Part shown: positions 1,086 through 15,308 of the stretch, one piece after another
Position numbering within the stretch: position 1 is the stretch's first letter
How the letters are laid out: every line of letters starts with the position of its first letter
DNA from: Candidatus Aminicenantes bacterium
GTDB lineage: Bacteria; Acidobacteriota; Aminicenantia; Aminicenantales; Aminicenantaceae
Length of the DNA stretch: 16,198 nt
Direction of reading: 5' to 3'
Assembly (NCBI GenBank): GCA_030607635.1
Contig: JAUWJP010000012.1
Span: 1 to 16,198 of the forward strand
The notes under the pieces: model-generated
The model's database searches: none
What the model saw: the letters and a program-made list of their open reading frames with translations, nothing else
What the model was told of the DNA's origin: nothing
Made by a program: the position numbers and the translations under genes

Positions 1086-1985
1086 CTATCTAAAATAAAT
1101 AAAGGAAATCTGGACCCCTAACTCTCTCTCATCCTTAGAGCGAAGTATAACCTGCTTCGGGATAAACGTTTTATCTGTAGAGATAACGAGGTAAAATATA
1201 TCCGCCTCGCCAAGTATTTCTTTTTTTATCCTGTATGATTTCTCGAATTGACTTTCCCCTGGGATGAACTCATCCAAAATCGAATCGTTGACCTTGAAGA
1301 TAACTTTTTGATTATTCAATACTCCCAGATTCACCCCCCCTTTTATAAACAGCAGAGCATCCTGGCGAGGATTATCAATTTTGCATCTGGCTTCATTGGC
1401 TGTCCATCTCCACCTTTTAAGAGAAGTCTCCGGTCTTATCTCTAAATAATACCATCCATCCTCGTAGCTGATTTTGGGTGCATTGGGAGGAGCAGGCGAA
1501 AACTTTAATTTTTTTTCAAGAATAGGCTTTGGTAGTTTCCCGGACCTGTCATAAGGAGAGTTCAATCCGATAGACAATCTCAAGATATCTTCTCCCTTGA
1601 ACGCAGGGTCAGACTTATCAATAAAGGCAGGAATATATATTCTTCGTGAATAAGTGTATTCCTTTTCCCGCTCCCATTGCGATGTTTGAATTTCCGGGGG
1701 ATGATTATCGTAGAAAAGAAGGTTATATCTATGCCAAAAATGTACATAAGCATAGTAGTCTTCTTTTACCTCTTCAAAGTCCTTCTTCGTCTTCCATCTA
1801 TACTGGATATCAGTAATCAGGTCATCTGATAAAGTCGCTTCAGAAAAGCTCACCTCGAGTTCGACCCCCCCGATCTGCGTCTCCCTCTTGCAGCTGAAAG
1901 AGACAAATGCCATCTGCATAATAAGAAAGATTCCTGCCACCTTTCTTATAATCTCGATCCTCCTTTTTTCTCTCAATAGGTGCAA
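1086..1985 (-). CDS. Exported or lipoprotein-like hypothetical protein, about 299 aa. The longest ORF begins with a TTG (1983-1985). An alternative ATG lies at 1917-1919, but starting there gives only a short N-region.
   Basis: Long ORF on the minus strand downstream of the BNR-repeat gene. Its N-terminus has a basic n-region (LLREKRRIEIIRK), a hydrophobic core (VAGIFLIMQMAFVSF) and then Cys. No conserved domain recognised by eye. Confidence 0.55.
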   Translation of the reverse strand: MHLLREKRRIEIIRKVAGIFLIMQMAFVSFSCKRETQIGGVELEVSFSEATLSDDLITDIQYRWKTKKDFEEVKEDYYAYVHFWHRYNLLFYDNHPPEIQTSQWEREKEYTYSRRIYIPAFIDKSDPAFKGEDILRLSIGLNSPYDRSGKLPKPILEKKLKFSPAPPNAPKISYEDGWYYLEIRPETSLKRWRWTANEARCKIDNPRQDALLFIKGGVNLGVLNNQKVIFKVNDSILDEFIPGESQFEKSYRIKKEILGEADIFYLVISTDKTFIPKQVILRSKDERELGVQISFIYFR

Positions 1986-2084: not shown

Positions 2085-5000
2085 CTAGCTAATTCTTATT
2101 TTTTTCCCGGCAAATATACGGGGGCTATTGTTTTTATTCATCAACTCATTCAGTTTGGGGATATCTACCTCTATTATCTTGTTTATCCTCTCAATAAGTG
2201 TCTTTAACTCTTCAGAATTTTTCTTTATCTGCAGAACACGATGCTCAGAAGGGGCACCTGTATATCCTCCGATAGACCTTCCGGCCATGAGGAACCGTCC
2301 TCTGACTGAAAGGCGCATCCCCCTATAACCTAATCTCGGGTCTCCGATTAACTTCAGCCGAATATCATCGATCTCTTTGGAGATAGCTTTAATCGACTCA
2401 TGAATTGCCGCGGGGACGTCAGGTATCTTTTGTAGAGCGCTTTCCTGCTTTTTTATCTCCTTTCTCATACTATCTGAAGCGCGGCTCGCTGCTGAAATTG
2501 CAGGGAACAGCTTATGTATGCCCATCAGGGCATCATGCTGGGCTTTTCTGTCCTCGAAGGAAATATCGATCCTGGGGTCTCCCTCAATCTTAACAATTTT
2601 TGTCATCTCCTGACCCGCTGTTTTCAACGTCACCTTATATTCTCCGGGAAGAACAAAGGGCCCTCGAGCTCTGCACCGACGGCTAATCCTATCCTCTCCA
2701 AGAGCTTCAGGAGGCCCATACCTCATATCCCAGGCAAGGCGATGGATTCCGGCATCTTTCTGACCTTTGAGCTCCCTTATTTGCTGCCCTTGGCTGTCTT
2801 GTATAGCTATTTTTACGTCTTCTTTCGCTTCCTCTTTCAGGTAGTAGCTTATCGTAGCCCCAAAAGGCGGATTTTGAGCGACGAAAAATTTGTGACCAAG
2901 ATTTCCCTTATGGTTGTAAGAATTAAAGATTGTTGCTTTACGGATGTCAAAAAGATAAGCGGAAGAGGTCAAGGTATCTTTTGTAAGCTGCTCTAAGGGA
3001 TTGATATCATCTAGAATCCATATACTCCGGCCATGGGTGCCGAAAATAAGGTCATTCTCTCGAGGATGAATGGCAATGTCATCAACGGGAACGGTGGGGA
3101 AGTTGCTCTTAAATTTCATCCACTTCTTTCCCCTATCAATAGAGAAGTAGGCCCCTCTTTCTGTTCCGATAAAAAGAAGATTGGGATTCCGATGATGCTC
3201 TCTTATAACATTGACAATTCCGCCTCGAGGCAGATTGAATGAGATATTCTTCCAGCTTTCCCCATAATCTGTTGTCGTGAAGACATAGGCTTTAAAATCA
3301 TTATTGCGGTGGCCGTCAAATGTGGCGTAGGCTGTCCCTTCTTTAAAGCGGGAAGCTACAACCCTGGTGACATAGGTATACTTGGGCATCCGGGGAACTT
3401 TGCTGATCACATTCTTCCAATTCTTCCCGCCATCGCGGGAGACCTGTAGGTTACCGTCATCTGTGCCTGCATAGATGAGACCTTCTTTAAGAGGGGACTC
3501 AGAAACTGTTGTGATACTGCCGTAATAGGAAATGCCGTCGTGTCGGGAAAGAGTGTCTTTGTCTGGAAGCACTCCCATAAGCGGAAGTTTTTCTCTATCC
3601 TGTTGAGTAGTCAGATCAATCGTGGCTTCCCATGTCTCTCCTCTATCCTTGGATTTAAAGAGTCTGTTTCCGCCGTAATATATTGTCTTGGGATCATGAG
3701 GGGATATCAAAATCGGAGAATTCCAGTTAAACCTGTAACGCTCTTTCTCATCATTAGGTTCAGGCCTTATGGACTTGCTTTCTCCTGACCTCACGTCAAA
3801 CCTGTAGAGATTCCCATTCTGGGATTCGGCATAAATGGTGTTGTTGTCTTCGGGATCGACTTGAGTATAAAAGCCATCTCCTCCCCCGATTCTGACCCAG
3901 TCCTCGTTGGAAACTCCAAGTCTATTCAAGGTTGAGCTGGGACCTCCCCAGGTTCCGTTATCCTGCAATCCTCCGTAGACATAATAAGGATTCCGCATAT
4001 CAAAACCTATTTCGTAAAACTGTCCGAGAGGGAGCGTATTGACAAAATCCCAGGTTTTGCCGCGATCGTAAGAAAAATAAATCCCTCCATCTGAGCCCAA
4101 GACCATATGATTGGAATCGGAAGGGTTAATCCACATCGCATGATGGTCGCCATGTACTCCCCTTACATAATTAGTGCTGAAAGACTTACCTCCATCCTCA
4201 GAGACATACATAGAAGCCCCGAGAACCCAAACCCTCTGGTCATTGTTCGGGTCGATGCGTATCTTACTGTAATACATGGGCCGAGGGTTGGTGCTCGACA
4301 TCTTTTTCCAGCTAACGCCTTTATCTTCTGAGCGAAAAATCCCACCCTGTTTGTGTTCGATAACGGCATAGATAACATTGGGGTTGCTGCGGAAAATATC
4401 TATTCCGATACGTCCTGTGTTTCCTGAAGGCAGTCCATTTGTCAGACGGGCCCATGTTTCTCCGCCATCGGTCGTCCCGTAAAGACCACTGCCAGGTCCT
4501 CCCCCGTTAAAACCCCATCCCCGGCGTCGCCTCTGATAGGCTGCCGCATACAGAACATTTGGATTCTCATGATCCAGGGCAACATCCACAAAACCTGTAT
4601 TCTCATCAATAAACTTGGTATTGGTCCAGGTTTTTCCGCCATCCATGGTTCGAAACAAGCCCCTTTCTTTGTTCGGACCCCAGAGATGCCCCAAGGCTGC
4701 GACATAAACAATATCCGGATTGGTGGGATGGATGACAATGCGACCAATATGATGGGTATCACGAAGCCCCATATTCTTCCATGTCCTGCCGCCGTCAGTA
4801 GATTTATAAATCCCGTCTCCCCAGGAAGAACTCTGACGATTGTTCGGTTCTCCAGTGCCAACCCAGATTATGCCCGAATTGGAAGGCGCCACGGTCACAT
4901 CGCCGATGGTGCTCGTAATCTGGTCATCGAAAATAGGTTCCCAGGTTACACCGTTATTGGTGGTCTTCCACACTCCTCCTGAGGCAGTCCCCGCATAAAT

Positions 5001-5213
5001 AATTTTAGGATTGTTTTCCACAACAGCAAAATCATCAATCCGTCCTCCCATGTTGGAAGGGCCGATACATCTCCATTTTAGCCCCTCAAGGATGGATTCT
5101 TTGATAAGAGGTTCAGGTTCTTTCTTTGCCTTTTTCGCACCGAGGAAAAGGCTTAGGGCCAATCCCATACACAGTATCAATAGAAACCGAGAAGAAAATA
5201 TTCCTTTTTTCAT
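2085..5213 (-). CDS. Large secreted BNR/Asp-box repeat protein of about 1042 aa. It is a sortilin/VPS10-like double beta-propeller, the family often annotated as BNR-repeat glycosyl hydrolase.
   Basis: At least 11 Asp-box motifs (S/T-x-D-x-G-x-T/S-W), for example STDGGRTWKN, TMDGGKTWTN, TTDGGETWARL, SYDRGKTWDF, SKDRGETWEA, SRDGGKNWKN, TTDYGESWKN and SIDRGKKWMK. The N-terminal block WRCIGPSNMGGRIDDFAV...GGVWKTTNNGVTW is typical of this family. Signal peptide MKKGIFSSRFLLILCMGLALSLFLGA. The start is placed at the second ATG (5211-5213) because AAGGAGGA lies 6-7 nt upstream; the first ATG at 5249 has no RBS. Confidence 0.88.
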   Translation of the reverse strand: MKKGIFSSRFLLILCMGLALSLFLGAKKAKKEPEPLIKESILEGLKWRCIGPSNMGGRIDDFAVVENNPKIIYAGTASGGVWKTTNNGVTWEPIFDDQITSTIGDVTVAPSNSGIIWVGTGEPNNRQSSSWGDGIYKSTDGGRTWKNMGLRDTHHIGRIVIHPTNPDIVYVAALGHLWGPNKERGLFRTMDGGKTWTNTKFIDENTGFVDVALDHENPNVLYAAAYQRRRRGWGFNGGGPGSGLYGTTDGGETWARLTNGLPSGNTGRIGIDIFRSNPNVIYAVIEHKQGGIFRSEDKGVSWKKMSSTNPRPMYYSKIRIDPNNDQRVWVLGASMYVSEDGGKSFSTNYVRGVHGDHHAMWINPSDSNHMVLGSDGGIYFSYDRGKTWDFVNTLPLGQFYEIGFDMRNPYYVYGGLQDNGTWGGPSSTLNRLGVSNEDWVRIGGGDGFYTQVDPEDNNTIYAESQNGNLYRFDVRSGESKSIRPEPNDEKERYRFNWNSPILISPHDPKTIYYGGNRLFKSKDRGETWEATIDLTTQQDREKLPLMGVLPDKDTLSRHDGISYYGSITTVSESPLKEGLIYAGTDDGNLQVSRDGGKNWKNVISKVPRMPKYTYVTRVVASRFKEGTAYATFDGHRNNDFKAYVFTTTDYGESWKNISFNLPRGGIVNVIREHHRNPNLLFIGTERGAYFSIDRGKKWMKFKSNFPTVPVDDIAIHPRENDLIFGTHGRSIWILDDINPLEQLTKDTLTSSAYLFDIRKATIFNSYNHKGNLGHKFFVAQNPPFGATISYYLKEEAKEDVKIAIQDSQGQQIRELKGQKDAGIHRLAWDMRYGPPEALGEDRISRRCRARGPFVLPGEYKVTLKTAGQEMTKIVKIEGDPRIDISFEDRKAQHDALMGIHKLFPAISAASRASDSMRKEIKKQESALQKIPDVPAAIHESIKAISKEIDDIRLKLIGDPRLGYRGMRLSVRGRFLMAGRSIGGYTGAPSEHRVLQIKKNSEELKTLIERINKIIEVDIPKLNELMNKNNSPRIFAGKKIRIS

Positions 5214-5461
5214 ACCATATCCTCCTTTATCCTTGTGATGAACGAGCATTATGCCAAAATACTCATCTTATGTTTTGAATAGAAAGCAAAAACTACCATA
5301 AGGCAAAGAAAAAAGTCAAAGCAAAAATGGGCAGTGTAAGGGTCTCCATTTCCTTGATAACTGGTTGCTATGTTCAGGACAAAGGTTTTGGGAAATATTT
5401 GCAGCGACCATTGAAGAAAGGCTCAGGCTACATGGTTCTAAAACACGTTGCTTATGCCCCA

Positions 5462-5662: not shown

Positions 5663-6655
5663 ATGAAATTTCTCTTATTTTTTCTTTCTCTTTTCAACCG
5701 CTCAGGATGCCAGATTAAAAATTGGTTTTACAAAAAGAAAATATCAACACCAAAAAAAGCACCTTTGCCCGTTATCAGCGTGGGAAGCATCGCCTTTGGG
5801 GGGACAGAAAAAACGCCATTGGTCATAAATCTGATAACCTATCTCATTAAACACGGCTTCAAACCTGCCCTGATCTCCCGTGGGTATAAAGGGAGATGGG
5901 AAAAGAGCGGAGGCATTCTCTCTGACGGAAAAAACATTCTCGCTCCTTGGGAGGATTCCGGTGATGAGCCATTTATGGTCGCCCAAAGCATTCCTCAGGC
6001 TGGAATTTTCATCGGTAAAAATCGTCTTCTCTCCTGCCAAAAAGCAAAGAGCCTGGGTTTCGAGCTTGCTGTGCTGGATGACGGCTTCCAGCATCGCCGC
6101 CTCCACAGAGATTTGGACATTGTTCTCTACACTCCGGCAGAAAAAATTGCATTTCGCGAACCTGTCTCTTCCCTTAAAAGAGCCAACATTCTTTTGATGA
6201 AGAAAGGAGTCGATCCTCAGAGGAAAAAAAGAATAAGGGAACACTTTCCTGAATCAACCGTCTTTGAATACTCTGTTAAAAATAAGGGTTTCTTCAAGTT
6301 AGTAGAGAAGGGGAGAGAGCCGGGTGAAAAGCTTGAAAGAAAAAAAGTACTCGCTTTTTGCGGAATAGCCCGGCCTGAAAGATTCTTATCCATCCTCCAC
6401 GAGGAAGGCATAAAGCCATCGTTTTTCTTTAAATTTCCTGATCATCATCCCTACCCCAAATCTTCTCTAGAAAAAATCGCAGAAAAATACAAAAAAATCA
6501 ACGCTGAAGCAATCATCACTACTGAGAAAGACGCCGTGAAGATTATTCACAACAATAGTTTTAAAAAAATCCCTGCTTATTATTTAAAGATCGACCTCGA
6601 GGTGGAGGATAAATTTTACGCCAGGATATCAAATCTACTCCAAAATTGGGTTTAA
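5663..6655 (+). CDS. lpxK: Tetraacyldisaccharide 4'-kinase (lipid A 4'-kinase)
   Basis: It has an N-terminal membrane helix and the P-loop region PVISVGSIAFGGTEKTP. The conserved LpxK blocks ISRGYKG, GDEP, DDGFQH, GIARPERF and TEKDAVK are present. The length of about 330 aa fits. Confidence 0.9.
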   Translation: MKFLLFFLSLFNRSGCQIKNWFYKKKISTPKKAPLPVISVGSIAFGGTEKTPLVINLITYLIKHGFKPALISRGYKGRWEKSGGILSDGKNILAPWEDSGDEPFMVAQSIPQAGIFIGKNRLLSCQKAKSLGFELAVLDDGFQHRRLHRDLDIVLYTPAEKIAFREPVSSLKRANILLMKKGVDPQRKKRIREHFPESTVFEYSVKNKGFFKLVEKGREPGEKLERKKVLAFCGIARPERFLSILHEEGIKPSFFFKFPDHHPYPKSSLEKIAEKYKKINAEAIITTEKDAVKIIHNNSFKKIPAYYLKIDLEVEDKFYARISNLLQNWV

Positions 6656-6664
6656 TATTCTAAA

Positions 6665-7564
6665 ATGGCAAATTTTAAAGAATTATTTGAATTCTCACTC
6701 TTTCAAATAGCCAAAGTTCCTTTGTCCATTCTTTCCCGGAAGCTGTGCCTCTCTTTGGGACAAACCTTGGGATTAGCCTTTTATTACCTGGATAAAAGGC
6801 ATCGCCTGATCGCTTTATCCAACCTGAAAATCGCTTTTGGAAAGGAATTGCCCCTTACTGAGCTTAAAAGAATAGCCCGCAACTCCTTTATGCATTTCGG
6901 AAAGACCTTCATGGATATCATAAAGCTTCCTCATCTTGGAGAAGAAAAAAGGAATGCCCTCATAAATATCGAAGGCGAAGAAAATCTGCTTAAAGCTCTT
7001 CGAGAAAAAAAGGGAGCGCTCCTCTTCTCTGCTCACTACGGAAGCTGGGAAATCGCTCCGTTTCTTATAGCCAAAAAGGGGGAACTAAGTGTCATTGCCC
7101 GCCCCTTGGATAACAAGCTCCTGGAGAAAGAACTCCTCAAGCTCAGAACAAGCCAGGGGTCCCACGTCATCTACAAACATCAGGCAACAAAAAAGATTCT
7201 TCAATCTCTGCGGGCAGGAGAAATGGTTGCCTTTTTGATAGATCAGAATGTTCTCAGACAACAAGCTGTCTTTGTCGATTTTTTTGGCAAGAAAGCAGCC
7301 ACAACCCCAAGCCTGGCATCTTTTTCCCTCAGGACAAAATCACCTCTCATCCCGGTATTTTGCTATCCTACATCATCCCATGCCTATCACCTTAAAATAT
7401 TCAGCCCTCTAAGCATAACCTTGGGAGGAAATTACAACCAGGAAGTATTGAAAATTACCCAAATATGCACTAAGATTATAGAAACTCAGATACGGAAAAA
7501 TCCAGATTATTGGTTTTGGTTCCACAACAGGTGGAAAACGAGACCAGAGGAAGAGGAGGCTTGA
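6665..7564 (+). CDS. lpxL: Lipid A biosynthesis late (lauroyl/myristoyl) acyltransferase, LpxL/HtrB/LpxM family
   Basis: Blocks align to E. coli LpxL: IALSNLKIAF, LKRIARNSFMHFG, the HX4E/D acyltransferase motif in FSAHYGSWEIA, ARPLDNKLLE, GEMVAFLIDQN and the C-terminal YWFWFHNRWKTRP. It starts 9 nt after the lpxK stop. Confidence 0.85.
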   Translation: MANFKELFEFSLFQIAKVPLSILSRKLCLSLGQTLGLAFYYLDKRHRLIALSNLKIAFGKELPLTELKRIARNSFMHFGKTFMDIIKLPHLGEEKRNALINIEGEENLLKALREKKGALLFSAHYGSWEIAPFLIAKKGELSVIARPLDNKLLEKELLKLRTSQGSHVIYKHQATKKILQSLRAGEMVAFLIDQNVLRQQAVFVDFFGKKAATTPSLASFSLRTKSPLIPVFCYPTSSHAYHLKIFSPLSITLGGNYNQEVLKITQICTKIIETQIRKNPDYWFWFHNRWKTRPEEEEA

Positions 7565-7567
7565 ATT

Positions 7568-7595
7568 TTGAAAATGGTCAAATCCTTGATATATA
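7568..7595 (+). promoter_or_regulatory. Possible internal promoter before rph: -35 TTGAAA (7568-7573), 16-nt spacer, -10 TATATA (7590-7595)
   Basis: Hexamers read from the 100-nt lpxL-rph gap. It may be unnecessary if rph is co-transcribed with lpxK-lpxL. Confidence 0.3.
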
Positions 7596-7664
7596 AGGAA
7601 AGAAAAACTAAAATTTCAACAAGCTTCCCCGAGTGGGGGCGAGGATTCTGAAGGAAACGGAAAA

Positions 7665-8408
7665 ATGAGAGCCAATAAGAGATCTTTCGATGAATTAAGA
7701 CCGATAAAAATCAAGCTAGATTATCTGGATTTTGCTGACGGTTCTGCTTTCATAGAGATCGGCAAAACCAGAATCGTTGCAGCAGCTACAATTGAAGAGA
7801 AGGTTCCGCCCTTCCTTAAGAAAAGCGGAACTGGCTGGATCACAGCCGAATACTCCATGCTTCCCCGCTCCACTGAAAAAAGAAACATTAGAGAAAGAAC
7901 ACATGCTCATATTTCGGGCCGAAGTCAAGAAATTCAGCGCCTCATAGGGCGCTCACTTCGTGCCGTGACAGATCTTAGCGTCCTTGGAGAGAGGACTATC
8001 ATCCTTGACTGTGACGTCCTCCAGGCTGACGGGGGGACAAGAACAGCTTCGATAACAGCCGCCTGCCTTGCCTTAGCCCTCGCCTTGAAAAAGATGATGG
8101 ACGAAAAGATTATCGACCGGATGCCCCTCAAATACCTGGTCAGCGGCATCAGTGTGGGCATTGTGGAAGGAGAAGTCCTTCTTGACCTCGATTACTCCGA
8201 GGATTCAAATGCAGAAATTGATATGAATGTTGCCGGTACAGAGAAGGAGCATCTCGTGGAATTACAGGCAACAGCAGAGAAAAATCCATTTTCAAGAAAA
8301 GAACTGAGCACTCTTTTAAACTTAGCCTATAAGGGAATAAGGGAAATAGCCCAAGTGCAGAAGGACGCCCTCAAAAAAAAGAGCATTCTCTTCATGGCCT
8401 ACAGGTAA
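7665..8408 (+). CDS. rph: Ribonuclease PH (tRNA nucleotidyltransferase)
   Basis: The N-terminus [16 protein letters not shown]...[18 protein letters not shown] and the motif [20 protein letters not shown] match RNase PH. The length is about 247 aa. Confidence 0.9.
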
Positions 8409-8423
8409 AAAGGAGAAAAAAAT

Positions 8424-9368
8424 ATGAATCGAATCCTTATAACAGGAGGAGCCGGTTTTTTAGGCAGCCATCTTTGCGACTCTCTTTTAGAAACGGGGGC
8501 GGATGTGGTCTGTGTCGACAATTTTTTCTCGGGCTACAAAGATAATATCCGGCACCTCTTTTCCCACCCTTATTTCGAACTGATCCGCCACGACATCACC
8601 CATCCTCTCTTTTTGGAGGTTGATAAAATTTATAATCTCGCTTGCCCTGCCTCACCACTCCACTACCAGCACAATGCGATAAAAACGGTAAAGACCAGCG
8701 TCATGGGGACCATAAATATGCTGGGCTTGGCCAAGAGGATAAAAGCCCGCATCCTCCTAGCTTCTACCTCTGAAATTTACGGGAATCCGGCAGTTCACCC
8801 TCAACAAGAAAGTTACTGGGGAAACGTCAATCCTGTCGGTATTCGAAGCTGCTATGACGAAGGAAAAAGAGTGGCTGAAACGCTGATGATGGACTACCAC
8901 CGTCAGAACAACGTTGACACCAGAATAGTCCGTATATTTAACACCTACGGCCCGCGGATGGCCATAAATGACGGAAGGGTTGTCAGCAACTTTATCGTTC
9001 AGGCACTAAGAGGAGAACCAGTCACCGTTTACGGAGACGGAACTCAAACACGCTCCTTTTGCTATGTCTCAGACCTCATTGATGCTTTCATAATGACGAT
9101 GGATAAAGAAGGTTTTACACAGCCCGTGAACCTGGGAAATTCAGCAGAATCCACTATCCTTGAGTTAGCCGAAAAAATAATCAAACTCACCAAAAGCTCT
9201 TCCAAGATCATCCGCAAGCCTCTGCCCTCGGATGACCCTGTGCGCCGATGTCCGGATATCTCATTAGCCAAAGAAAAACTCGGCTGGCAGCCAAAAATAG
9301 GTTTAGAGGAGGGACTGCTCAAAACCATCGCCTACTTTAGAGAAAGATTGGACCTTAAGAAAAAATAG
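8424..9368 (+). CDS. uxs: UDP-glucuronate decarboxylase (UDP-xylose synthase, UXS-type short-chain dehydrogenase/reductase)
   Basis: It is near-collinear with UXS1-type enzymes: [54 protein letters not shown] and [10 protein letters not shown]. An AAGGAG RBS lies 9 nt upstream. Confidence 0.9.
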
Positions 9369-9455
9369 CCCCCCTTTCATCAGGAACAAATTTTACTTTG
9401 CTAAGTTTAAATAAAAAGACAGGTCTCGGCGTTAAAAATCTGAAGGGAGCTAGGC

Positions 9456-9509
9456 AAAAGAAAAATGGGGCCTGGCCCCATTTTTCTTTTGCTCCCATTT
9501 TTCTTTTTT
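9456..9509 (+). terminator. Strong palindromic intrinsic terminator. It has 17-nt perfect arms AAAAGAAAAATGGGGCC-t-GGCCCCATTTTTCTTTT, followed by a second copy of CCCATTTTTCTTTT. An A-tract upstream and a T-tract downstream make it potentially bidirectional.
   Basis: Read directly. It lies about 90 nt after the uxs stop. GC-rich core stem with flanking U/A runs. Confidence 0.8.
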
Positions 9510-9527
9510 CCTTAAGAGAGCGCCTTC

Positions 9528-9555
9528 TTGACAATAATAACTCTTCGCTATAACA
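9528..9555 (+). promoter_or_regulatory. Sigma70-like promoter for the flotillin operon: -35 TTGACA (9528-9533) and -10 TATAAC/ATAACA (9549-9555)
   Basis: Consensus -35 hexamer with 15-16 nt spacing to an A/T-rich -10. A leader of about 100 nt ends in the AGGAGG RBS (9650-9655) 7 nt before the ATG at 9663. Confidence 0.45.
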
Positions 9556-9662
9556 TTTCCGCTATCAGAGGATTTTAAGAAAAACGAGCAAATATTTATA
9601 ATTATGAATAATTCATCAAAATCCTGCCTTACCTTGAGAGGCTTAATTCCAAGGAGGTTATT

Positions 9663-11069
9663 ATGACCATCATACCCAAGCTGATCATATTAGGCATCAT
9701 ACTTATTTTCTTAGCCTTAATAATTCTTCTTATGGCCAAACAGTATCGAAAAGTCGGTCCCAATCAGGCTCTTATTATTTCTGGAGGAAGAAAGAGAACA
9801 GTGATCGCGCCTGACGGAACCAAGAAAAAAGTTGGCTATCGCTATCGTCTTGGAGGAGGCACCTTTGTCTTGCCCTTCATTGAAACCGTTGACATCTTGC
9901 CTATGGAAGTGATCACCTTGAATATTAAAACTCCAGAAGTTCTCACTCACGGAGGAGTTCCCCTCATGGCTGAATCCACTGCTCAGGTCAAGATAGATCC
10001 CTCGGACCACTCTATTCGCCTGGCCGCAGAGCAATTTTTGGGATTGGGAAAAGAAGGCATCAAGAGTGTCTCCATGACCATCCTCGAGGGAAAGATGAGA
10101 GAGGTCATAGGTGCCACGACCGTGGAGGAAATTTATACAGCAAGACACGAATTTTCAGCTAAAGTGATCCAGGCTGCTCATAAAGACTTTGCCCTGATGG
10201 GTTTGGTCATGATGTCCTTTGCCCTTAAAGACATAAGCGACACGCAGGGATACCTCGATGCCCTCGGAAAGCCACAGATAGCTGCAGCCAAACGGGACGC
10301 TGCAATCGCAGAAGCAGAAACAGAAAAGCAAGCCGTGGTCAAATCTTCAGAAGCTCGGAAGGAAGCAGAAGTGGCGCGCCTCGCTGCCGCAGCCCTCATC
10401 GCCAAAGCCGAGTGGGAAAACGAAGGAAAAAAGGCCGAGTCGCAGACTCTGGTCAACCAGAAAAAAGCACAAGCAGACCTCTCCTATGAACTTGAGCGCT
10501 TCCGTATCGACCAGGAAATAAAAAAGGAAGAAGCCAAGGTAAAAATTATAGAGAAGGAACAATCCATAAAGATAGAGGATTTAGAAATCGGCCGTAAGCA
10601 GAAAGAGCTTGAGTCCAGCGTTATCAAACCTTCTGACGCCCGCAAATACCAGCTAAAAGCCGAAGCAGAAGCAGAAGAATACCGCATCCTGGCTGAAGCC
10701 AGGGGAAAATCAGAAGCGACAAAACTCGAAGGTACTGCTGCAGCCGAAGAGCTCAAGCAACGAGGTTTAGCCGAGGCTGAAACAATGCTGAAAAAAGCTC
10801 AGGCCTGGGAAAAGTACGACAAGGCTGCTCTCTTTGATACTTATCTTAAACTCCTCCCTGACTTGGCCAAGGCCGTCTCCGAACCTCTTTCCAAGGTTGA
10901 TAAAATTGTGATTGTTGGAGGAGATAAAGGCCTGGGTACTTCAAAAATCACCGCCCAGGTAGCAGAAATCCTGGCTCAAATGCCAGAGGTAGTCAAGTCT
11001 CTGACAGGGATTGACCTGAAGAAATATTTCAAAGAGAAACTCACGCCTGAAGAGAAAGAAGAAGAATGA
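9663..11069 (+). CDS. floT: Flotillin-like SPFH/band-7 membrane scaffold protein (FloT/YuaG family)
   Basis: It has an N-terminal transmembrane helix, an SPFH core (GGGTFVLPFIETVDILPMEV, TPEV, GYLDALGKPQIAAAKRDA) and a long A/E/K-rich coiled-coil. It is collinear with B. subtilis FloT. Confidence 0.88.
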   Translation: MTIIPKLIILGIILIFLALIILLMAKQYRKVGPNQALIISGGRKRTVIAPDGTKKKVGYRYRLGGGTFVLPFIETVDILPMEVITLNIKTPEVLTHGGVPLMAESTAQVKIDPSDHSIRLAAEQFLGLGKEGIKSVSMTILEGKMREVIGATTVEEIYTARHEFSAKVIQAAHKDFALMGLVMMSFALKDISDTQGYLDALGKPQIAAAKRDAAIAEAETEKQAVVKSSEARKEAEVARLAAAALIAKAEWENEGKKAESQTLVNQKKAQADLSYELERFRIDQEIKKEEAKVKIIEKEQSIKIEDLEIGRKQKELESSVIKPSDARKYQLKAEAEAEEYRILAEARGKSEATKLEGTAAAEELKQRGLAEAETMLKKAQAWEKYDKAALFDTYLKLLPDLAKAVSEPLSKVDKIVIVGGDKGLGTSKITAQVAEILAQMPEVVKSLTGIDLKKYFKEKLTPEEKEEE

Positions 11070-11096: not shown

Positions 11097-13448
11097 ATGA
11101 TATCAGAAAAAGCTAGTCAAATCGGCATATCTCCCACTCTTAAAATATCAACCAAAGCCAAGGCAATGAAAGCCGAGGGAATAGACGTTGTTGACCTCAG
11201 TGTGGGAGAGCCAGACTTTCCCACTCCTGATAATGTAAAAGCGGCCGGTATCCAGGCCATTGAGCAAAATTTTACCAAGTATACAGCAAACGATGGAATT
11301 CCAACGCTGAAAGAAGCGATTATAAACCACCTGAAACAAGATTTTGGCCTCGCATACGCTCTGGATGAAATCATCGTCTCCTCAGGAGCAAAGAGCTCGC
11401 TTTACCATCTCGTTCAAGCGCTGATTGATGAAGGCGAAGAAGTCATCATCCCGGCTCCTTACTGGGTAACCTATCCCCATTCAGTCTCACTGGCTAAAGG
11501 AAAAGCCGTCATAATCCCTACCAAGGAAGAAAATGGATTTCTTCTGACGCCAGATCAGCTAAAGTCTGCCATCTCCCCTGCCACCAAGGCTTTGATACTT
11601 AACAATCCCTCCAATCCCACAGGAGCAGCCTACGAAAAACGCGATCTTGAAGCCCTGGCGGACATAGTTATGGAAGAAGATATCTTCGTTATCGCTGATG
11701 AGATCTATGAAAAAATCGTCTATGATGACTTTCGTTTTGTGAGTTTTGCTTCCCTGGGAGAGGAAATAAAAAAGAAAACAGTTATCATCAGCGGGGTCTC
11801 AAAATCTTACTCCATGACTGGATGGCGAATTGGATATGCAGCCGGCCCCGCAGAAATAATCAATGGCATGGCCAAAATCCAGAGCCACACTACCTCCAAT
11901 GCCTGCTCGATCTCTCAAAAAGCGAGTTTAGAAGCCTTGACCGGTCCCCAGTATGAAGTTTCCAAAATGACATCTGAGTTTCAGAGACGGAGAAATTATC
12001 TCTTGATGAGGATTCAGAGAATCCCTCATCTCTCCTGTTTCAAACCACAGGGAGCATTCTATCTTTTTCCTAATCTCTCCTCTTATTATGATAAAGAATT
12101 CAACAATGTCCAGATTCGAAACTCTTACGGCATGGCTTATTATCTTCTAAAAGAGGCTTTAGTAGCTATAGTTCCAGGAGATTCCTTTGGTGCCGATGAT
12201 TATATCCGTATTTCATATGCAACTTCCATGGAAAACCTGGAAAAAGGTATGGACAGGATCACACAGGCCCTCTCAAACCTTAAAACAGCTAAAAAAATCA
12301 AGCGCATATCTTTAGACAATACGATAACACGAAGAAAAAAATCAGTGCCCGTAGATTCCACAATCTCTGTCAAAATGAAGGATGCTCTGATCGCTGAAAT
12401 GGAAAGCCATCTCAGCTACGAAAACTATTTTGAATGGAACGCCAACATCAACGGCGTCATTGTTCAGCTGCGCACGAATGTCTCCCACCTCAATGATTTC
12501 TGGATCGAAAACTGGTACCCGGCTCAACTTGAAGCAGACCTGGAACCCCATGGCATCATATACGCTATCGACGGAATAACAGGACGCGAACCGCACTCTT
12601 TCTATAACTCAGAAACAAACACAGGAGTGCTCGTCAACACAGACAATTACGTTTCTCTGCGCAGTCTGGCTCTTGGTCTTGTCATGGACGGCTCCGAAAA
12701 GCTTTTTAATGTCCACACTATCCGGGGAATGTCGGCTGACATTGACGGAAGCGGTCTCGTCCTGATCGGGCCAAAAGGAACAAAAAAGACTGAACTTTTC
12801 TTCGCTCTTCTTCAAGATAAAAGATTCCGCTTGCACTCCAACGACATCATTTTCGTCCGCTTGGCAGGAGGCCCAGCCCTGGCTGATTCTGTCGAAAGAA
12901 AACTTTTTTCCCCGACAAACACTGTTGAATCCTATCCTCGCTTAGCTCCTCTTTTCGACTCAAGTAAATGTGAAAACGTAATTACGCTCAAAGAAGACTG
13001 CCAGGATTCAGAATGTCTTCGCATTGACGACTGCCGTCTTGACCGCGGCTCTCCCTATTGCTATAAAGCCTCCAAAGATTCCCATGCTCTTCTTGATCCG
13101 TATTGGATCGAGGGCCCAGCAAAGCACGTTAAGAGAACTTCTCTCCGTTGGGTATTCATCCTCCGCTATGATACAGTCTCTCCCCCTGTGGTGGAAGTCC
13201 AGGTTGAAGATGCCCTGCGCATTCTCGAGTCTGGACAGAGCCTGGGACTAACGCGCGGTCTCAGTCCCTCTAAAAGCCAGCCCTTTTTCAATCCCCATCT
13301 TTTGCCCACAACCCCTGAAAAGATGGAACTTCAGAGGAATTTTTTCGAGCGTCTTCTCGATAGCAGTTCCTGTTACCTCTTTAACAGCGGAAAGGCCTCA
13401 GTCGATGACCTCAAAAAAATTGTGACAGATGAGCCAAAAACAGAATAA
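11097..13448 (+). CDS. Fusion protein of 783 aa. The N-terminal ~395 aa are a class-I PLP-dependent aspartate aminotransferase. The C-terminal ~385 aa are an HprK/PEPCK-fold P-loop kinase-like domain with a Cys-rich segment.
   Basis: The AAT part carries GEPDFPTP, NNPSNPTGAAY and the PLP-lysine block SKSYSMTGWRIGYA, and ends about MDRITQALSNL. The C-terminal part contains GSGLVLIGPKGTKKTELFFALLQDKRFRLHSNDIIFV, which aligns with the HPr kinase C-domain pattern G-L-G-V-L-I-x-G-x-S-G-x-G-K-S-E...R-G-H-x-L-[IV]-[AS]-D-D. It also contains C-x9-C-x4-C-x5-C-x8-C (about 12965-13065). The reading frame is continuous with no stop between the domains. Confidence 0.8.
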   Translation: MISEKASQIGISPTLKISTKAKAMKAEGIDVVDLSVGEPDFPTPDNVKAAGIQAIEQNFTKYTANDGIPTLKEAIINHLKQDFGLAYALDEIIVSSGAKSSLYHLVQALIDEGEEVIIPAPYWVTYPHSVSLAKGKAVIIPTKEENGFLLTPDQLKSAISPATKALILNNPSNPTGAAYEKRDLEALADIVMEEDIFVIADEIYEKIVYDDFRFVSFASLGEEIKKKTVIISGVSKSYSMTGWRIGYAAGPAEIINGMAKIQSHTTSNACSISQKASLEALTGPQYEVSKMTSEFQRRRNYLLMRIQRIPHLSCFKPQGAFYLFPNLSSYYDKEFNNVQIRNSYGMAYYLLKEALVAIVPGDSFGADDYIRISYATSMENLEKGMDRITQALSNLKTAKKIKRISLDNTITRRKKSVPVDSTISVKMKDALIAEMESHLSYENYFEWNANINGVIVQLRTNVSHLNDFWIENWYPAQLEADLEPHGIIYAIDGITGREPHSFYNSETNTGVLVNTDNYVSLRSLALGLVMDGSEKLFNVHTIRGMSADIDGSGLVLIGPKGTKKTELFFALLQDKRFRLHSNDIIFVRLAGGPALADSVERKLFSPTNTVESYPRLAPLFDSSKCENVITLKEDCQDSECLRIDDCRLDRGSPYCYKASKDSHALLDPYWIEGPAKHVKRTSLRWVFILRYDTVSPPVVEVQVEDALRILESGQSLGLTRGLSPSKSQPFFNPHLLPTTPEKMELQRNFFERLLDSSSCYLFNSGKASVDDLKKIVTDEPKTE

Positions 13449-13475: not shown

Positions 13476-15308
13476 ATGAATAACAAAGGAATTTACAATC
13501 ATGAAGCCTACAATAAATTCAAGGAGGAACTCCTTCGAGTCTTAAAGGGACCGAACATCAGAACCGTAGACCTCAAATGGATCGAGCCAAAAGCCAAAGC
13601 ATCGGGAGTGAAAACAAAGTTCGGATCCTACGGCTGGCGGGCAGCCATATCAAGCCGCATTGCCCCAAAAACTGTCTACTTAGGGAGTGAAGCAGCCCAC
13701 CTTCCCTCTCCCACAACAGAACAGCAAACTCTCATCTCCAGGGCGCCGGAAGAACTGGACAAGGTGCTCCATCTTCTGAGAACTCTTCCCTTCTACCACA
13801 TCCGGAGACAGATGGGAGAAAATGATTCCTATAACCCCATCTGCAATCTTTATGTTTCCGAAGCAGATCTTGTGAACTACCGCATCGGATTTATGTGGGG
13901 ACACACCATGTTCAAACCAGGAAAGCGTCCTGGCCCCGAGTTCATCATGATTCATATTCCGGAAGAGCATCTTCTGCGGCAGCAAATTCTTGCTCTGCCT
14001 GAAAAAAAAATTAATATCGCTCTGGGGACTGATTACTTGGGAGAAGATAAAAAAGGTTTTCTCCGCCAGGCTATGTGGTCTGCTGATGAGCTGGGCATGC
14101 TCGGTCTTCACGCCGGAACAAAGCTGGTTACGGTCAGAGATTCCAACAACAAGCTCAAAACCTATGGAGTATTTCTGTTTGGCCTGACAGCAACGGGAAA
14201 ATCCACCTGGTCCTGCCACAAACTCGGGCTTGATTATGATAAAGGCGAAAAGACCATAGTCTCCCAGGATGATATTGTTTTCTTGAAGACTGACGGATCT
14301 GCCCTGGGGACAGAAGACAACTTCTTTGTGAAAACAGATGTTGAACAAGAAAGCCAGGAAGCGATGTACAACGCTCTAACCGACAAATCTGCGCTGTTTG
14401 AAAACGTCATGATCAAAGCCGATGGGGAAGTCGATTTTCTCGATGAACCTCTTACGGCAAACGGAAGGGCAGTTCTGAGGCGCGATAAACTCAAGGTCAA
14501 GATAAAGGGAAAAACGGTTGGCATCTACTCTAAATCTATCAACCTCCCTCCTCTTAAAGAACTTGACGGTCTTGTCTTTGCTTTCATCACTCGAAGAAAT
14601 ACGATCATGAGTTTTGCCCAGGAGTTGACCCCGGAACAAGCTGTGCTTGCCTATCTCTGGGGAGAAAGCACTCACAGCTATGCCAGCCAGCCCCTCAAAG
14701 CCGGTGAATCAGTGCGCATTGTCGGAACCGATCCTTTCATCGTCGGGCCCAGAGCTAAAAAAATCAACCGCTTCTATGAAATAATCATGACCCTTGTCAG
14801 CAACTACCCGGGAAAACTCAAATTCATGCAGTACAACACAGGGGGACTTGGAGAGATTATCGAAACTCATGAAGAAAACGGTCAAACGAAAAAAAGATTG
14901 GTGCGCAAGGTGAGCCGTGTTCCCATCAATCTTATGGCTCAAATCCAGAGGGGGGATTTAAGGGGAACCAACCACTATGAGAAAGGACTGCTCGCAACCA
15001 AGGAAATAAGGCTCTGCGAAGGAAAGAGTCTAGATGAATACGCCCTCCGCAACTTCTACTCTGAGGAGCAGGTTCAACACTATATAAAGGATTTAGTGGC
15101 AGGCAGACGGAAGTTTACGGAGGAAGTTTCCTCTGAAGGACTCAGAGAAGAAATTCTTTATGCAGCAGAACGATCCTTCCGTATCGATAAAAGTGAAAAA
15201 AAAGAAAAGGCACCTGTACTTGAAAGCCCGGCTGCGGAGGAGAAGCCTATCACGTTCAGGGAATCCAAATCCAGACCGCGCAGGGAGAGGTTCTGGCGGT
15301 CAAGGTAA
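13476..15308 (+). CDS. pckA: Divergent ATP-dependent phosphoenolpyruvate carboxykinase family protein of 610 aa, with a basic low-complexity C-terminal extension of about 60 aa
   Basis: Collinear with E. coli PckA: ALGTDYLGEDKKG (GGTWYGGEMKKG), GLHAG (SMHCS, metal His), FLFGLTATGKSTWS (kinase-1a GLSGTGKTTLS), VSQDDIVF (IGDDEHGW), EDNFFVKTD (EGGCYAKT), AMYNALTDKSALFENVMIKADGEVDF ([25 protein letters not shown]) and YNTGGLG (NTGWNG). The catalytic K/H/DD/GK[ST] residues are present. Confidence 0.78.
   Translation: MNNKGIYNHEAYNKFKEELLRVLKGPNIRTVDLKWIEPKAKASGVKTKFGSYGWRAAISSRIAPKTVYLGSEAAHLPSPTTEQQTLISRAPEELDKVLHLLRTLPFYHIRRQMGENDSYNPICNLYVSEADLVNYRIGFMWGHTMFKPGKRPGPEFIMIHIPEEHLLRQQILALPEKKINIALGTDYLGEDKKGFLRQAMWSADELGMLGLHAGTKLVTVRDSNNKLKTYGVFLFGLTATGKSTWSCHKLGLDYDKGEKTIVSQDDIVFLKTDGSALGTEDNFFVKTDVEQESQEAMYNALTDKSALFENVMIKADGEVDFLDEPLTANGRAVLRRDKLKVKIKGKTVGIYSKSINLPPLKELDGLVFAFITRRNTIMSFAQELTPEQAVLAYLWGESTHSYASQPLKAGESVRIVGTDPFIVGPRAKKINRFYEIIMTLVSNYPGKLKFMQYNTGGLGEIIETHEENGQTKKRLVRKVSRVPINLMAQIQRGDLRGTNHYEKGLLATKEIRLCEGKSLDEYALRNFYSEEQVQHYIKDLVAGRRKFTEEVSSEGLREEILYAAERSFRIDKSEKKEKAPVLESPAAEEKPITFRESKSRPRRERFWRSR

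Follow-up and report, generated by a model that had tools for sequence, protein, structure and literature searches.

An Aminicenantes aspartate aminotransferase fused to a C-terminal domain of predicted PEPCK fold and encoded beside a PEPCK gene

Gene Content of the Locus

The window analyzed here, a whole 16,198-nucleotide stretch of contig JAUWJP010000012.1 from a Candidatus Aminicenantes bacterium, carries a flotillin gene, a gene joining an aspartate aminotransferase (AspAT) to a PEP carboxykinase (PEPCK)-like domain (hereafter the C-domain), and a gene for a divergent PEPCK (Table 1). The spacing of these three genes is operon-like, and a pattern search found no terminator-like site on the forward strand between 9663 and 15308. 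The hairpin and promoter-like sites ahead of the flotillin gene are likely the start of a flotillin-fusion-PEPCK transcription unit. An exact look-up of the fusion protein in a contig collection gave no record. The fusion gene begins with ATG, ends with TAA, and has no interruption, bearing out an earlier note on this DNA that read a class-I AspAT running without a stop into a domain of ~385 aa. That note had also placed a PEPCK-family gene 27 nt downstream, and the gap is exactly 27 nt.

Table 1. Features at the fusion locus, in window positions. Residues of the C-domain are given in C-domain numbering unless marked aa; PEPCK residues are in E. coli numbering.
Feature	Position	Strand	Evidence or remark
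Strong terminator-like hairpin (9453-9493, 19 bp stem), then promoter-like sites (9528-9602)	9453..9602	+	Pattern matches only
Flotillin/SPFH gene, 27 nt upstream of the fusion gene	9663..11069	+	PF01145, PF15975
Fusion gene, AspAT then mini-PEPCK-like domain	11097..13448	+	Single ORF, 783 aa
Class Ib AspAT domain, aa 1-396	11097..12284	+	PF00155 E=6e-77; PDB 6f35, 1j32 E ~1e-108
C-domain, aa 397-783, predicted complete compact PEPCK fold, no Pfam match	12285..13445	+	
Structured linker/N-terminal extension of the C-domain (TAKKIKRISLDNTITRRKKSVPVDSTISV), conserved L-x-N-x-x-T	12285..12371	+	Alignment A1; pLDDT
N-lobe signature YFEWNANINGVIVQLRTNVSHLNDFWIENWYPAQLEADLEPHGIIY, with R63 (aa 459)	12426..12563	+	Invariant columns
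NTDNYVSLRS, degenerate counterpart of PEPCK G-T-x-Y207-x-G-E-x-K212-K213	12636..12665	+	hhalign columns: N121 = Y207, R126 = K212, S127 = K213
I-R147-G, with Arg where PEPCK has H232 and HprK its catalytic His	12720..12728	+	HprK alignment (HG vs RG)
Atypical P-loop GPKGTKKT (kinase-1a)	12768..12791	+	Lys168/Thr169 kept; Gly before Lys replaced by Lys
Kinase-2 strand LHSND	12831..12845	+	hhalign: N186 = D268, D187 = D269
Cys-rich insert C239-x4-C244-x5-C250-x8-C259 (plus C229 in SKCENV)	12999..13061	+	Located where PEPCK has a hairpin, after the ENV motif and before R333
Divergent ATP-type PEPCK, 610 aa, catalytic motifs intact	13476..15308	+	PF01293 E=1e-23, 84.1 bits (cutoff 26.5)

The Aminotransferase Domain

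The PF00155 model aligns to aa 30-388 of the fusion protein at 259.6 bits (cutoff 19.7), spanning model positions 2-361 of 361, and among solved structures the closest to aa 1-396 have E values from 1e-108 to 1e-89. These are the class Ib aspartate and prephenate aminotransferases S. meliloti AatB (6f35), the P. lapideum enzyme (1j32), Arabidopsis PAT (5wmh), and T. thermophilus AspAT (1bjw), which match end to end and have their PLP-lysine and substrate-binding motifs in common with the fusion. Motifs conserved in the alignment include GAK, NPSNPTG, ADEIY, SKSYSMTGWR, and IRISYA. Residues matching 6f35 are K236, within SKSYSMT (nt 11799-11819), N173 (NPSNPTG), D201 and Y204 (ADEIY), R371 (IRISYA), and K99 (GAK). 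By reference to T. thermophilus AspAT, K236 presumably binds PLP, N173, D201, Y204, and R371 are taken to hold PLP or the alpha-carboxylate, and K99 is taken to be the distal-carboxylate lysine of subgroup Ib.

Specificity for aspartate is only likely because the NCBIfam equivalog cutoffs for 'aspartate transaminase' were missed (NF004769, 436.8 vs 617; NF041091, 411.3 vs 550), and prephenate or broad specificity is possible. Solved and characterized class Ib aminotransferases stop at ~385-410 aa or add only a transit peptide, and none has a C-terminal PEPCK-fold domain. A literature search found no description of the fusion architecture, as the earlier note had supposed for characterized AspATs, or of a 'PEPCK-like' prokaryotic domain.

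Integrity and Conservation of the Fusion

Some database entries split this gene in two or label it 'partial', as might happen if an assembly or frameshift artefact had merged two ordinary genes. Comparison of loci from 80 species-representative Aminicenantes genomes settles that concern, since the aminotransferase and the C-domain lie in one frame in 74/74 complete loci (those with the aminotransferase start on the contig), drawn from independent assemblies and encoding 778-791 aa. The locus called as two genes (L002) has a frame change within the aminotransferase domain and an in-frame junction with the C-domain, and the 'truncated' call (L001) abuts a run of N, taken as an assembly gap; neither the split nor the truncation is biological. 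In an additional locus (L044), the frame is broken within the aminotransferase, away from the junction. Residues at the junction itself are conserved and under purifying selection.

Against four close relatives, dN/dS is 0.08-0.17 for the aminotransferase part and 0.10-0.14 for the C-terminal part, so both halves are under purifying selection (dN/dS ~0.1). An artefact is thereby excluded for practical purposes, and the fusion gene is real and conserved phylum-wide in Aminicenantes. That it joins an AspAT to a PEPCK fold in particular can be held with high confidence.

Fold and Family Placement of the C-terminal Domain

The isolated C-domain has no Pfam match at E<=10, to either PF01293 or PF07475, and its fold was therefore assigned by structure prediction. 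In the predicted model, it is a complete, compact, two-lobed PEPCK fold, nearer to PEPCK than to HprK. Homology with PEPCK is detectable profile to profile only, with an hhalign probability of 94% (E=1.4e-7, 249 columns) against the subfamily of the neighboring PEPCK. In the linker, L10, N12, and T15 are invariant or nearly so in alignment A1, and pLDDT climbs to 89-93 by C-domain residues 11-30. The full-length AlphaFold monomer (A4, 40 sequences) is weak (pTM 0.52) because its alignment rows were fragments; the N-terminal regions of the aminotransferase are poor, and no confident interdomain geometry is obtained.

ATP-dependent PEPCKs (PckA, EC 4.1.1.49, PF01293; T. cruzi 1ii2, E. coli 1aq2, and T. 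thermophilus 2pc9) differ from the C-domain in several respects. The C-domain is ~140 residues shorter, has no PF01293 match at any threshold, is attached to an aminotransferase, and has a P-loop Gly changed to Lys and a Cys4 insert in place of the active-site hairpin. The Euglena gracilis complex I accessory subunit NDUEG2 (PDB 8j9h chain E2), part of a eukaryotic respiratory complex, is 12% identical to the C-domain.

The earlier note had matched the core segment SADIDGSGLVLIGPKGTKKTELFFALLQDKRFRLHSNDIIFV to the HPr kinase C-terminal domain. This segment is present in the ORF, with its P-loop at 12768-12791 and LHSND at 12831-12845, but the domain is not merely an HprK-type module, as the predicted fold takes in both lobes of PEPCK. 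An HprK-like protein kinase or phosphorylase acting on a protein target such as PEPCK, the aminotransferase, or flotillin is very improbable. The only sub-threshold sequence-family matches are to HPr kinase, and P0077 and P0117 carry precomputed PF07475 matches, yet the scores fall far below family cutoffs (TIGR00679, 14.1 bits, cutoff 240; PDB HprK chains, E=0.035-0.06). HprK (PF07475, TIGR00679; 1jb1, 1ko7, 1knx), with a kinase module of ~170 aa, covers 136-155 of the 387 residues, corresponding to ~140 residues only, with no counterpart of the PEPCK-type N-lobe and C-terminal elements, and its catalytic His is Arg147 in the C-domain.

Residues and Motifs of the C-terminal Domain

No stretch of the fusion protein is more conserved than the N-lobe signature YFEWNANINGVIVQLRTNVSHLNDFWIENWYPAQLEADLEPHGIIY, with a column conservation of 0.93 over aa 451-480 vs 0.84 for the aminotransferase domain. 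Invariant C-domain residues in the 75 Aminicenantes sequences (75/75) include E50, N52, R63, T64, N65, H68, and H89, and E204, R205, K206, E230, N231, D271, N336, and N367 are also strictly conserved. R63 is proposed as the counterpart of E. coli PEPCK R65. Catalytic residues were mapped by profile alignment and motif spacing, not by structural superposition, and E. coli numbering was carried over via the neighboring PEPCK (query 178-332 = 1aq2 198-334).

Compared with PEPCK, the C-domain has S for K213, R for H232, N for D268, N for Y207, P for K288, and H or a variable residue for R333; PDB titles identify Y207, K212, K213, H232, D268, D269, and R333 of the E. coli enzyme as the studied catalytic positions. 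Among the Mn2+ ligands K213, H232, and D269, the Asp alone is kept (D187), and among the oxaloacetate/PEP-binding residues R65, Y207, and R333, a counterpart is kept for R65 only. The R333 position is H267 and varies among H, Y, F, V, and R across Aminicenantes. R147 is found in 75/75 Aminicenantes sequences, and its column in the wider family has R in 112 sequences and H in 70. The assignment to H232 is ambiguous, as hhalign selects H144, which is not conserved, whereas spacing and the HprK alignment select R147.

The Aminicenantes P-loop follows the pattern G-[PAS]-x-G-T-[KRNQ]-K-[TS], with K168 in 75/75 and both K168 and T169 invariant, though the last position of the pattern is written [TS]. 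In the kinase-2 strand, D187 is present in 73/75 sequences and N186 in 71/75. Cysteines of the insert, a putative metal site, are kept in >=90% of family members and in 72-75 of 75 Aminicenantes sequences, and the insert has a pLDDT of 71-86, below that of the rest.

Because two of the three Mn2+ ligands as well as Y207 and R333 are replaced, the C-domain itself is most likely unable to carry out the PEPCK reaction any longer, and the residue analysis argues against canonical PEPCK catalysis. The strictly conserved polar residues and the invariant P-loop Lys and Thr resemble an active site or a ligand-binding site more closely than a docking surface, which counts against a mere docking role.

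A second active site with altered chemistry would fit part of this pattern. The domain would be a neofunctionalized mini-PEPCK acting on the 2-oxo-acid product of the aminotransferase, making the protein a true bifunctional enzyme. Possible reactions include the decarboxylation of oxaloacetate, or a phosphorylation that relies on another phosphoryl donor or another arrangement of metals, perhaps with Arg147 and the putative Cys4 metal site substituting for the Mn2+ site. Favoring this are ~20 polar residues invariant in 75/75, including K168, T169, D187, and E204-R205-K206 (D187 when counted separately, 73/75), a dN/dS of ~0.1, replacements that are fixed rather than drifting (R147, N186), and four conserved Cys where the PEPCK active-site hairpin would be. 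The missing Mn2+ ligands and substrate contacts, and the freedom of the R333 position to vary, weigh on the other side, and the idea is judged rather unlikely, if far from negligible.

Stand-alone Relatives and Other Fusions

Relatives of the C-domain that stand alone, without an aminotransferase, form >1300 protein clusters at 90% identity in archaea and bacteria, and 522 GTDB species have a relative. Their hosts include Thermoplasmatota, Nitrososphaerales, Methanosarcinales, Thermodesulfobacteriota, Chloroflexota, and Omnitrophota MAGs. There is no Pfam or NCBIfam model for the family, its members are annotated as 'hypothetical protein' or, rarely, 'ATP-dependent PEPCK' (JGI), and none is characterized as far as a literature search shows. 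Thaumarchaeota literature lists annotated pckA without saying which type.

These proteins of ~355-410 aa (P0128, P0125, and P0131 among them) consist of the same domain end to end, and P0128 is 37% identical to the C-domain (E=1e-72). The N-lobe signature and the ENV, LDPxW, NPxLL, and NxG motifs are common to both. The stand-alone forms keep HSIHG, APTGTGKST, HSDDW, and NSRA (R333-like), read NTDYYGQCKS where the fusion has NTDNYVSLRS, and mostly have no full Cys4 insert. Most of the PEPCK residues replaced in the fusion are thus retained (Y, K, H, DD, and R), along with a canonical GTGKST, and the fused form is therefore derived. Against NF006821, the stand-alone relatives have E values of 1e-8 to 1e-14.

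The aminotransferase-C-domain architecture recurs in distant lineages (P0121, 785 aa; P0122, 781 aa). One archaeal lineage (P0136, 899 aa, three independent contigs) instead combines a C-domain-like module with the subfamily of the neighboring PEPCK in one chain; this module is 33% identical to the C-domain of the window (E=4e-62) and has the derived R147 and N186 in common with it. The P-loop is degenerate in P0121 (HAPNVKKER) and erased in P0136 (GSSENDIAT).

For the second-site reading, these relatives cut both ways. The stand-alone proteins look fully catalytic, and in one of them an intein directly follows the P-loop, as is typical of functional sites. NDK adjoins family members in two unrelated lineages, a hint at nucleotide use. 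Loss of the P-loop in fused P0121 and P0136 is hard to square with essential phosphoryl transfer.

Other contexts examined were the following. A metagenome scan with the stand-alone alignment gave a single locus, because back-translated P-loop patterns were too generic; an arginase-family gene lies upstream, and the context is uninformative. A Thaumarchaeota locus (L095) likewise offered no informative context. A 396-aa neighbor of P0128 considered as an aminotransferase was rejected, as it is peptidase M3.

Linkage to PEPCK and Flotillin

The neighboring PEPCK falls under the NF006821 cutoff (280 bits, cutoff 369), yet its alignment to solved PEPCKs has Y-x-G-E-x-K-K-G, H, GLTATGKST, QDD, ENV, and NGR, and it has Y187, K192, K193, H212, K242, D265, D266, and R331, none of which varies within its family. 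In 63/80 Aminicenantes loci, this gene follows the fusion immediately downstream. In 14/80, an SIS gene is directly next instead, and PEPCK is also not adjacent in L001, L002, and L094; in L094, BLASTP ruled out a 595-aa gene as a PEPCK in disguise. The fusion therefore also occurs with no PEPCK next to it. At a distant locus (L091), a PEPCK of the same subfamily, 57% identical, is two genes away on the opposite strand.

The most constantly linked neighbor is flotillin, which lies upstream on the same strand in 74/75 Aminicenantes loci with gaps of ~19-38 nt, and is also linked at L091 and L094. It is probably in the same transcription unit as the fusion.

The usual adjacency of fusion and true PEPCK suggests a hard-wired aspartate-to-oxaloacetate-to-PEP unit, a pairing first proposed in the earlier note. 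The 63/80 adjacency, the L091 neighborhood (rearranged, yet retained), and the P0136 fusion support it, whereas the 14/80 loci and L001, L002, and L094 show that it is not universal. For a physical association with PEPCK and a channeled Asp-to-PEP flux, these three observations are indirect evidence. The presence of a complete PEPCK alongside would usually make a second OAA-to-PEP activity in the C-domain redundant, a further point against a second active site.

Persistence of the fusion in genomes without an adjacent PEPCK would also suit an allosteric sensor, in which the relic PEPCK cleft binds a metabolite such as ATP/ADP, PEP, OAA, or PPi and tunes the aminotransferase, with PEPCK adjacency reflecting shared pathway regulation and no contact. 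The retention of the P-loop Lys and Thr and cleft-type residues without catalytic metal ligands is in keeping with this, as is the rigid and conserved linker, which is predicted well. A literature search turned up no precedent, and P0136 is a PEPCK fusion without any P-loop, so P-loop ligand sensing is not general. Such a sensor is considered unlikely.

A Degenerate PEPCK Paralogue as a Possible Tether

The explanation preferred here, at a probability of about 0.4, is that the C-domain, a PEPCK paralogue degenerate in its catalytic residues, tethers AspAT to PEPCK or regulates the pair, as a ligand-sensing or non-catalytic module. One polypeptide would combine an intact class Ib AspAT with a compact (~385 aa) paralogue of ATP-dependent PEPCK that keeps the two-lobed fold, the P-loop Lys and Thr for putative phosphate or nucleotide binding, the kinase-2 Asp, and the R65-like Arg. 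The partner of this PEPCK-like module would be the true PEPCK encoded downstream, and oxaloacetate formed from aspartate by AspAT, being unstable, would be passed straight to PEPCK for conversion to PEP. An anaerobe that uses amino acids would in this way have an entry into gluconeogenesis. The tether or adaptor mechanism taken specifically is somewhat short of an even bet.

Implications

Oxaloacetate is scarce and chemically unstable, and its transfer from enzyme to enzyme is a classic metabolon question. If the tether reading is true, the natural covalent joining of AspAT to a PEPCK-like domain, with a real PEPCK alongside, would offer a simple and testable form of enforced coupling at the junction of amino-acid use and gluconeogenesis, in a globally abundant, uncultured phylum.

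A broader and doubtful proposal is that mini-PEPCKs (~360-410 aa) are an unrecognized, widespread branch of the PEPCK superfamily. Their stand-alone members, including those of Nitrososphaerales and Thermoplasmatota, would be active enzymes. The fused form would be a pseudo-PEPCK, present in Aminicenantes, Zixibacteria, Calditrichota, and Acidobacteriota, and would nucleate a dedicated aspartate-to-oxaloacetate-to-PEP metabolon with a true PEPCK, possibly organized at the membrane by flotillin. The analysis exposes a large unannotated family of the PEPCK/HprK superfamily in which the stand-alone members, which look catalytic, are clearly set apart from the derived, fused ones. This division is useful for genome annotation, for the study of pseudoenzyme evolution, and for rechecking calls of PEPCK as present or absent in metabolic reconstructions of archaea.

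An aminotransferase fused to a second domain

The fusion gene encodes 783 amino acids in one unbroken frame, and its reading in the earlier note, as a complete class-I aspartate aminotransferase continuing into a C-terminal domain (residues 397-783, the C-domain), holds. A complete class I/II aminotransferase domain spans residues 30-388 (Pfam PF00155, E=6e-77); K236, the PLP lysine, and the expected binding motifs are present. Among solved proteins, residues 1-396 come closest to aspartate and prephenate aminotransferases of subgroup Ib (E 1e-108 to 1e-89), namely S. meliloti AatB (6f35), P. lapideum 1j32, Arabidopsis PAT (5wmh), and T. thermophilus 1bjw. Aspartate specificity is likely, short of proven, because the top NCBIfam matches, 'aspartate transaminase' equivalogs, score under their cutoffs. 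Public annotations name the protein plain aminotransferase.

The architecture is shared well beyond this contig. A scan for the C-domain, taking one genome per GTDB species, found relatives in 522 species, the best 80 loci all being from Aminicenantes or from mislabelled MAGs of the same clade. Both parts lie in a single open frame of 778-791 aa in 74/74 loci with the aminotransferase start on the contig; one further locus, L044, has a frame break within the aminotransferase. Two apparent exceptions have technical causes: the two-part gene call in L002 stems from a frame change inside the aminotransferase, the junction being in frame, and the L001 gene runs up against a stretch of N, interpreted as an assembly gap. 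Distant full-length fusions, about 50% identical, are P0121 (785 aa) and P0122 (781 aa), and there are fragments under the labels Zixibacteria, Calditrichota, and Acidobacteriota; taxon names throughout follow the depositors. Pairwise dN/dS against close relatives is ~0.1 in both halves, and the linker carries the invariant residues L-x-N-x-x-T. An assembly or frameshift artefact merging two genes, the alternative raised beforehand, is excluded by the shared frame, the dN/dS, and the invariant linker; this strong comparative evidence thus stands in for a read-level check and marks the fusion as genuine and under selection.

A compact PEPCK fold

The profile searches proposed in the earlier note returned no Pfam match for the 387-residue C-domain, even at E=10, and no Pfam or NCBIfam model covers it. 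The signal from sequence methods was weak and confined to the P-loop: the HPr kinase model TIGR00679 matches at E=0.021, and a PDB profile search was topped by four HprK chains (E=0.035-0.06). In Foldseek, the 35 best matches are all ATP-PEPCKs (E 1e-18 to 1e-14; query-normalised TM 0.65-0.73), and profile-profile comparison with the family of the neighbouring PEPCK (hhalign) gave a probability of 94% and E=1.4e-7 over 249 columns, pairing the P-loop, kinase-2, E..K, ENV, N-P, and N-x-G motifs. The alignment given to AlphaFold had little depth, at 32 rows, and the model of the full-length fusion was uninformative. Because of the Foldseek matches and the significant profile-profile comparison, the C-domain is taken to be established as a complete, compact, two-lobed PEPCK fold of ~385 aa, against ~520-610 aa for PEPCK. 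The PEPCK side of the earlier HprK/PEPCK-fold reading therefore stands, with the HprK likeness reduced to a shared superfamily core; an HprK-like protein kinase role, to which the sequence matches at the P-loop might point, is unlikely.

An exhaustive profile search yielded 343 representative proteins at 50% clustering. When stand-alone members later served as query, >1300 clusters at 90% identity emerged; among their sources are Thermoplasmatota, Nitrososphaerales, Methanosarcinales, Thermodesulfobacteriota, Chloroflexota, and Omnitrophota. Almost every entry is a 'hypothetical protein', a few being named ATP-PEPCK by JGI, and membership of the C-domain in an unannotated family is firmly shown. 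The stand-alone relatives (355-410 aa, with no fused aminotransferase) resemble the C-domain end to end at 37% identity, and carry canonical HSIHG, APTGTGKST, HSDDW, NTDYYGQxKS, and NSRAxxDP motifs, with the His, standard Walker A, Asp-Asp, Tyr/Lys, and R333-like Arg all in place. Their best named relative is the neighbour's PEPCK subfamily, NF006821 (E 1e-8 to 1e-14). One stand-alone protein, P0197 (754 aa), has an intein (PF14890, E=1.5e-16; residues ~200-400) directly after the P-loop GTGKS, which suggests that the P-loop is functionally critical in these members. Another stand-alone member, of 391 aa (PF07475, E=1e-10), from a soil metagenome, overlaps an upstream arginase-family gene by 4 nt, a single observation. 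A group of ~555 aa (about 540-570 aa; P0156, P0173, P0178, P0193, P0198, P0218, and P0244) aligns with just one half of the profile, that of the N-lobe and P-loop. These proteins carry HSIHG, GTGKST, and HSDDW in canonical form, have no PF01293 match, and may be another unannotated branch of the PEPCK superfamily.

Replaced catalytic residues

The neighbouring gene encodes a divergent, motif-complete ATP-type PEPCK. Its residues 178-332 align with E. coli PckA 198-334, and Y187, K192, K193, H212, K242, D265, D266, and R331 correspond to E. coli Y207, K212, K213, H232, K254, D268, D269, and R333, which are mutated in E. coli mutant structures according to PDB entry titles. Residue roles in E. 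coli PEPCK we take to be those of established knowledge and these titles. The mapping was transferred to the C-domain through hhalign, the HprK alignment, and the alignment of stand-alone relatives.

Alignment-based counterparts of E. coli PEPCK residues in the C-domain (protein numbering minus 396)
E. coli PEPCK	C-domain	Remarks
R65	R63	probable counterpart; invariant
Y207	N121	
K212	R126	
K213	S127	
H232	R147	21 residues to P-loop Lys, as in HprK; hhalign pairs H232 instead with non-conserved H144
S250-T255	G162-P-K-G-T-K-K-T169	
D268	N186	
D269	D187	
K288	P210	
R333	H267	

Across 75 Aminicenantes sequences, R63, R126, R147, K168, T/S169, D187, E204-R205-K206, E230-N231, D271, W274, N336, and N367 are invariant or nearly so, position 267 is free to vary (H, Y, F, V, R), and in place of the P-loop Gly there is invariably K, R, N, or Q. 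Four or five conserved cysteines (C229, C239, C244, C250, C259; CX4CX5CX8C) lie in an insert in the place of the PEPCK hairpin leading to R333 and are reasonably taken as a putative structural metal site. At the level of alignment it is firmly shown that two Mn2+ ligands and two residues that bind substrate were replaced in the fused branch, and that this branch retains the putative phosphate-binding Lys/Thr of the P-loop and many polar residues of cleft type. The P-loop decays further in other fused lineages (HAPNVKKER in P0121). Because the stand-alone relatives keep the canonical motifs, the aminotransferase-fused form reads as a derived branch with several catalytic positions replaced. The conservation pattern among the Aminicenantes sequences resembles a ligand or active site.

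Linkage to PEPCK and flotillin

A terminator-like hairpin and promoter-like sites precede three co-oriented genes, flotillin/SPFH, fusion, and PEPCK, spaced by 27-nt gaps with no terminator-like site between them in the window; the gap before PEPCK is exactly the 27 nt first noted.

Features of the window and of related loci
Feature	Position	Strand	Remarks
ORF	442-1011	+	no Pfam match
ORF	1086-1985	-	no Pfam match
ORF	2085-5249	-	1054 aa; Sortilin/Vps10 and BNR/Asp-box repeats
ORFs resembling ordinary envelope and RNA-processing genes	5663-9368		LpxK, lipid A acyltransferase, RNase PH, NAD-dependent epimerase
Terminator-like hairpin	9453-9493		strong
Promoter-like sites	9528-9602		
Flotillin/SPFH	9663-11069	+	N-terminal membrane helix
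Fusion	11097-13448	+	
PEPCK	13476-15308	+	
Flotillin, other loci	L002-L006, L011-L090		
Flotillin	L091 4556-5983		
Flotillin	L094 99-1499		
Nucleoside diphosphate kinase	L001 9587-10015		downstream of Zixibacteria fusion
Nucleoside diphosphate kinase	L092 4325-4825		upstream of stand-alone Omnitrophica P0125
P0136	L007 6001-8700		also on L008, L009
Stand-alone member, soil metagenome	L093 895-2960		

PEPCK directly follows the fusion in 63/80 Aminicenantes loci and a convergent SIS gene does so in 14/80, the other 3/80 being uninformative or different. The 14 with no PEPCK between fusion and SIS (L024, L026, L030, L035, L053, L054, L056, L060, L070, L072, L075, L080, L087, and L088) keep all the conserved C-domain residues. 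Flotillin lies ~19-38 nt upstream of the fusion in 74/75 Aminicenantes loci, a tighter linkage than that of PEPCK, and is also found in the two distant fused lineages. In L091 the fusion is P0122, which shares 52% identity with the fusion protein of the window. A PEPCK sharing 57% identity with that of the window is encoded on the opposite strand, two genes upstream and adjacent to flotillin, so the trio outlasts rearrangement. In L094, the P0121 locus, flotillin is again directly upstream, with no PEPCK within 6 kb downstream. Genetic linkage of the C-domain to a true PEPCK and flotillin is firmly shown; membrane-microdomain scaffolding of the enzyme pair by flotillin is speculation. Nucleoside diphosphate kinase genes adjoin family members in two unrelated lineages, a possible sign that the domain uses nucleotides.

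The most telling of the genomic associations is P0136 (899 aa, on three contigs), in which a C-domain-like module is carried on the N-terminus of the window neighbour's PEPCK subfamily in a single chain. The module is 33% identical to the window C-domain (E=4e-62) and shares its derived Arg147 and Asn186, with no recognisable P-loop and no Cys insert; the neighbouring genes are archaeal-looking (V4R, TFIIE-like).

Proposed role

With this Rosetta-stone fusion and the recurrent neighbourhood as main support, the preferred reading is that the C-domain is a catalytically degenerate PEPCK paralogue coupling the aspartate aminotransferase to the true PEPCK. It would bind that enzyme, or at least work with it, and oxaloacetate from the aminotransferase would be converted at once to PEP. 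Linkage of the fusion to PEPCK is incomplete and the conservation active-site-like; therefore neofunctionalised catalysis by the C-domain and allosteric sensing remain serious rivals to coupling. Full-text literature searches turned up no description of the fusion or the C-domain. Since the components belong to superfamilies already known, the system is not new in category; what is novel is the domain architecture and, within the PEPCK/HprK superfamily, a large subfamily.
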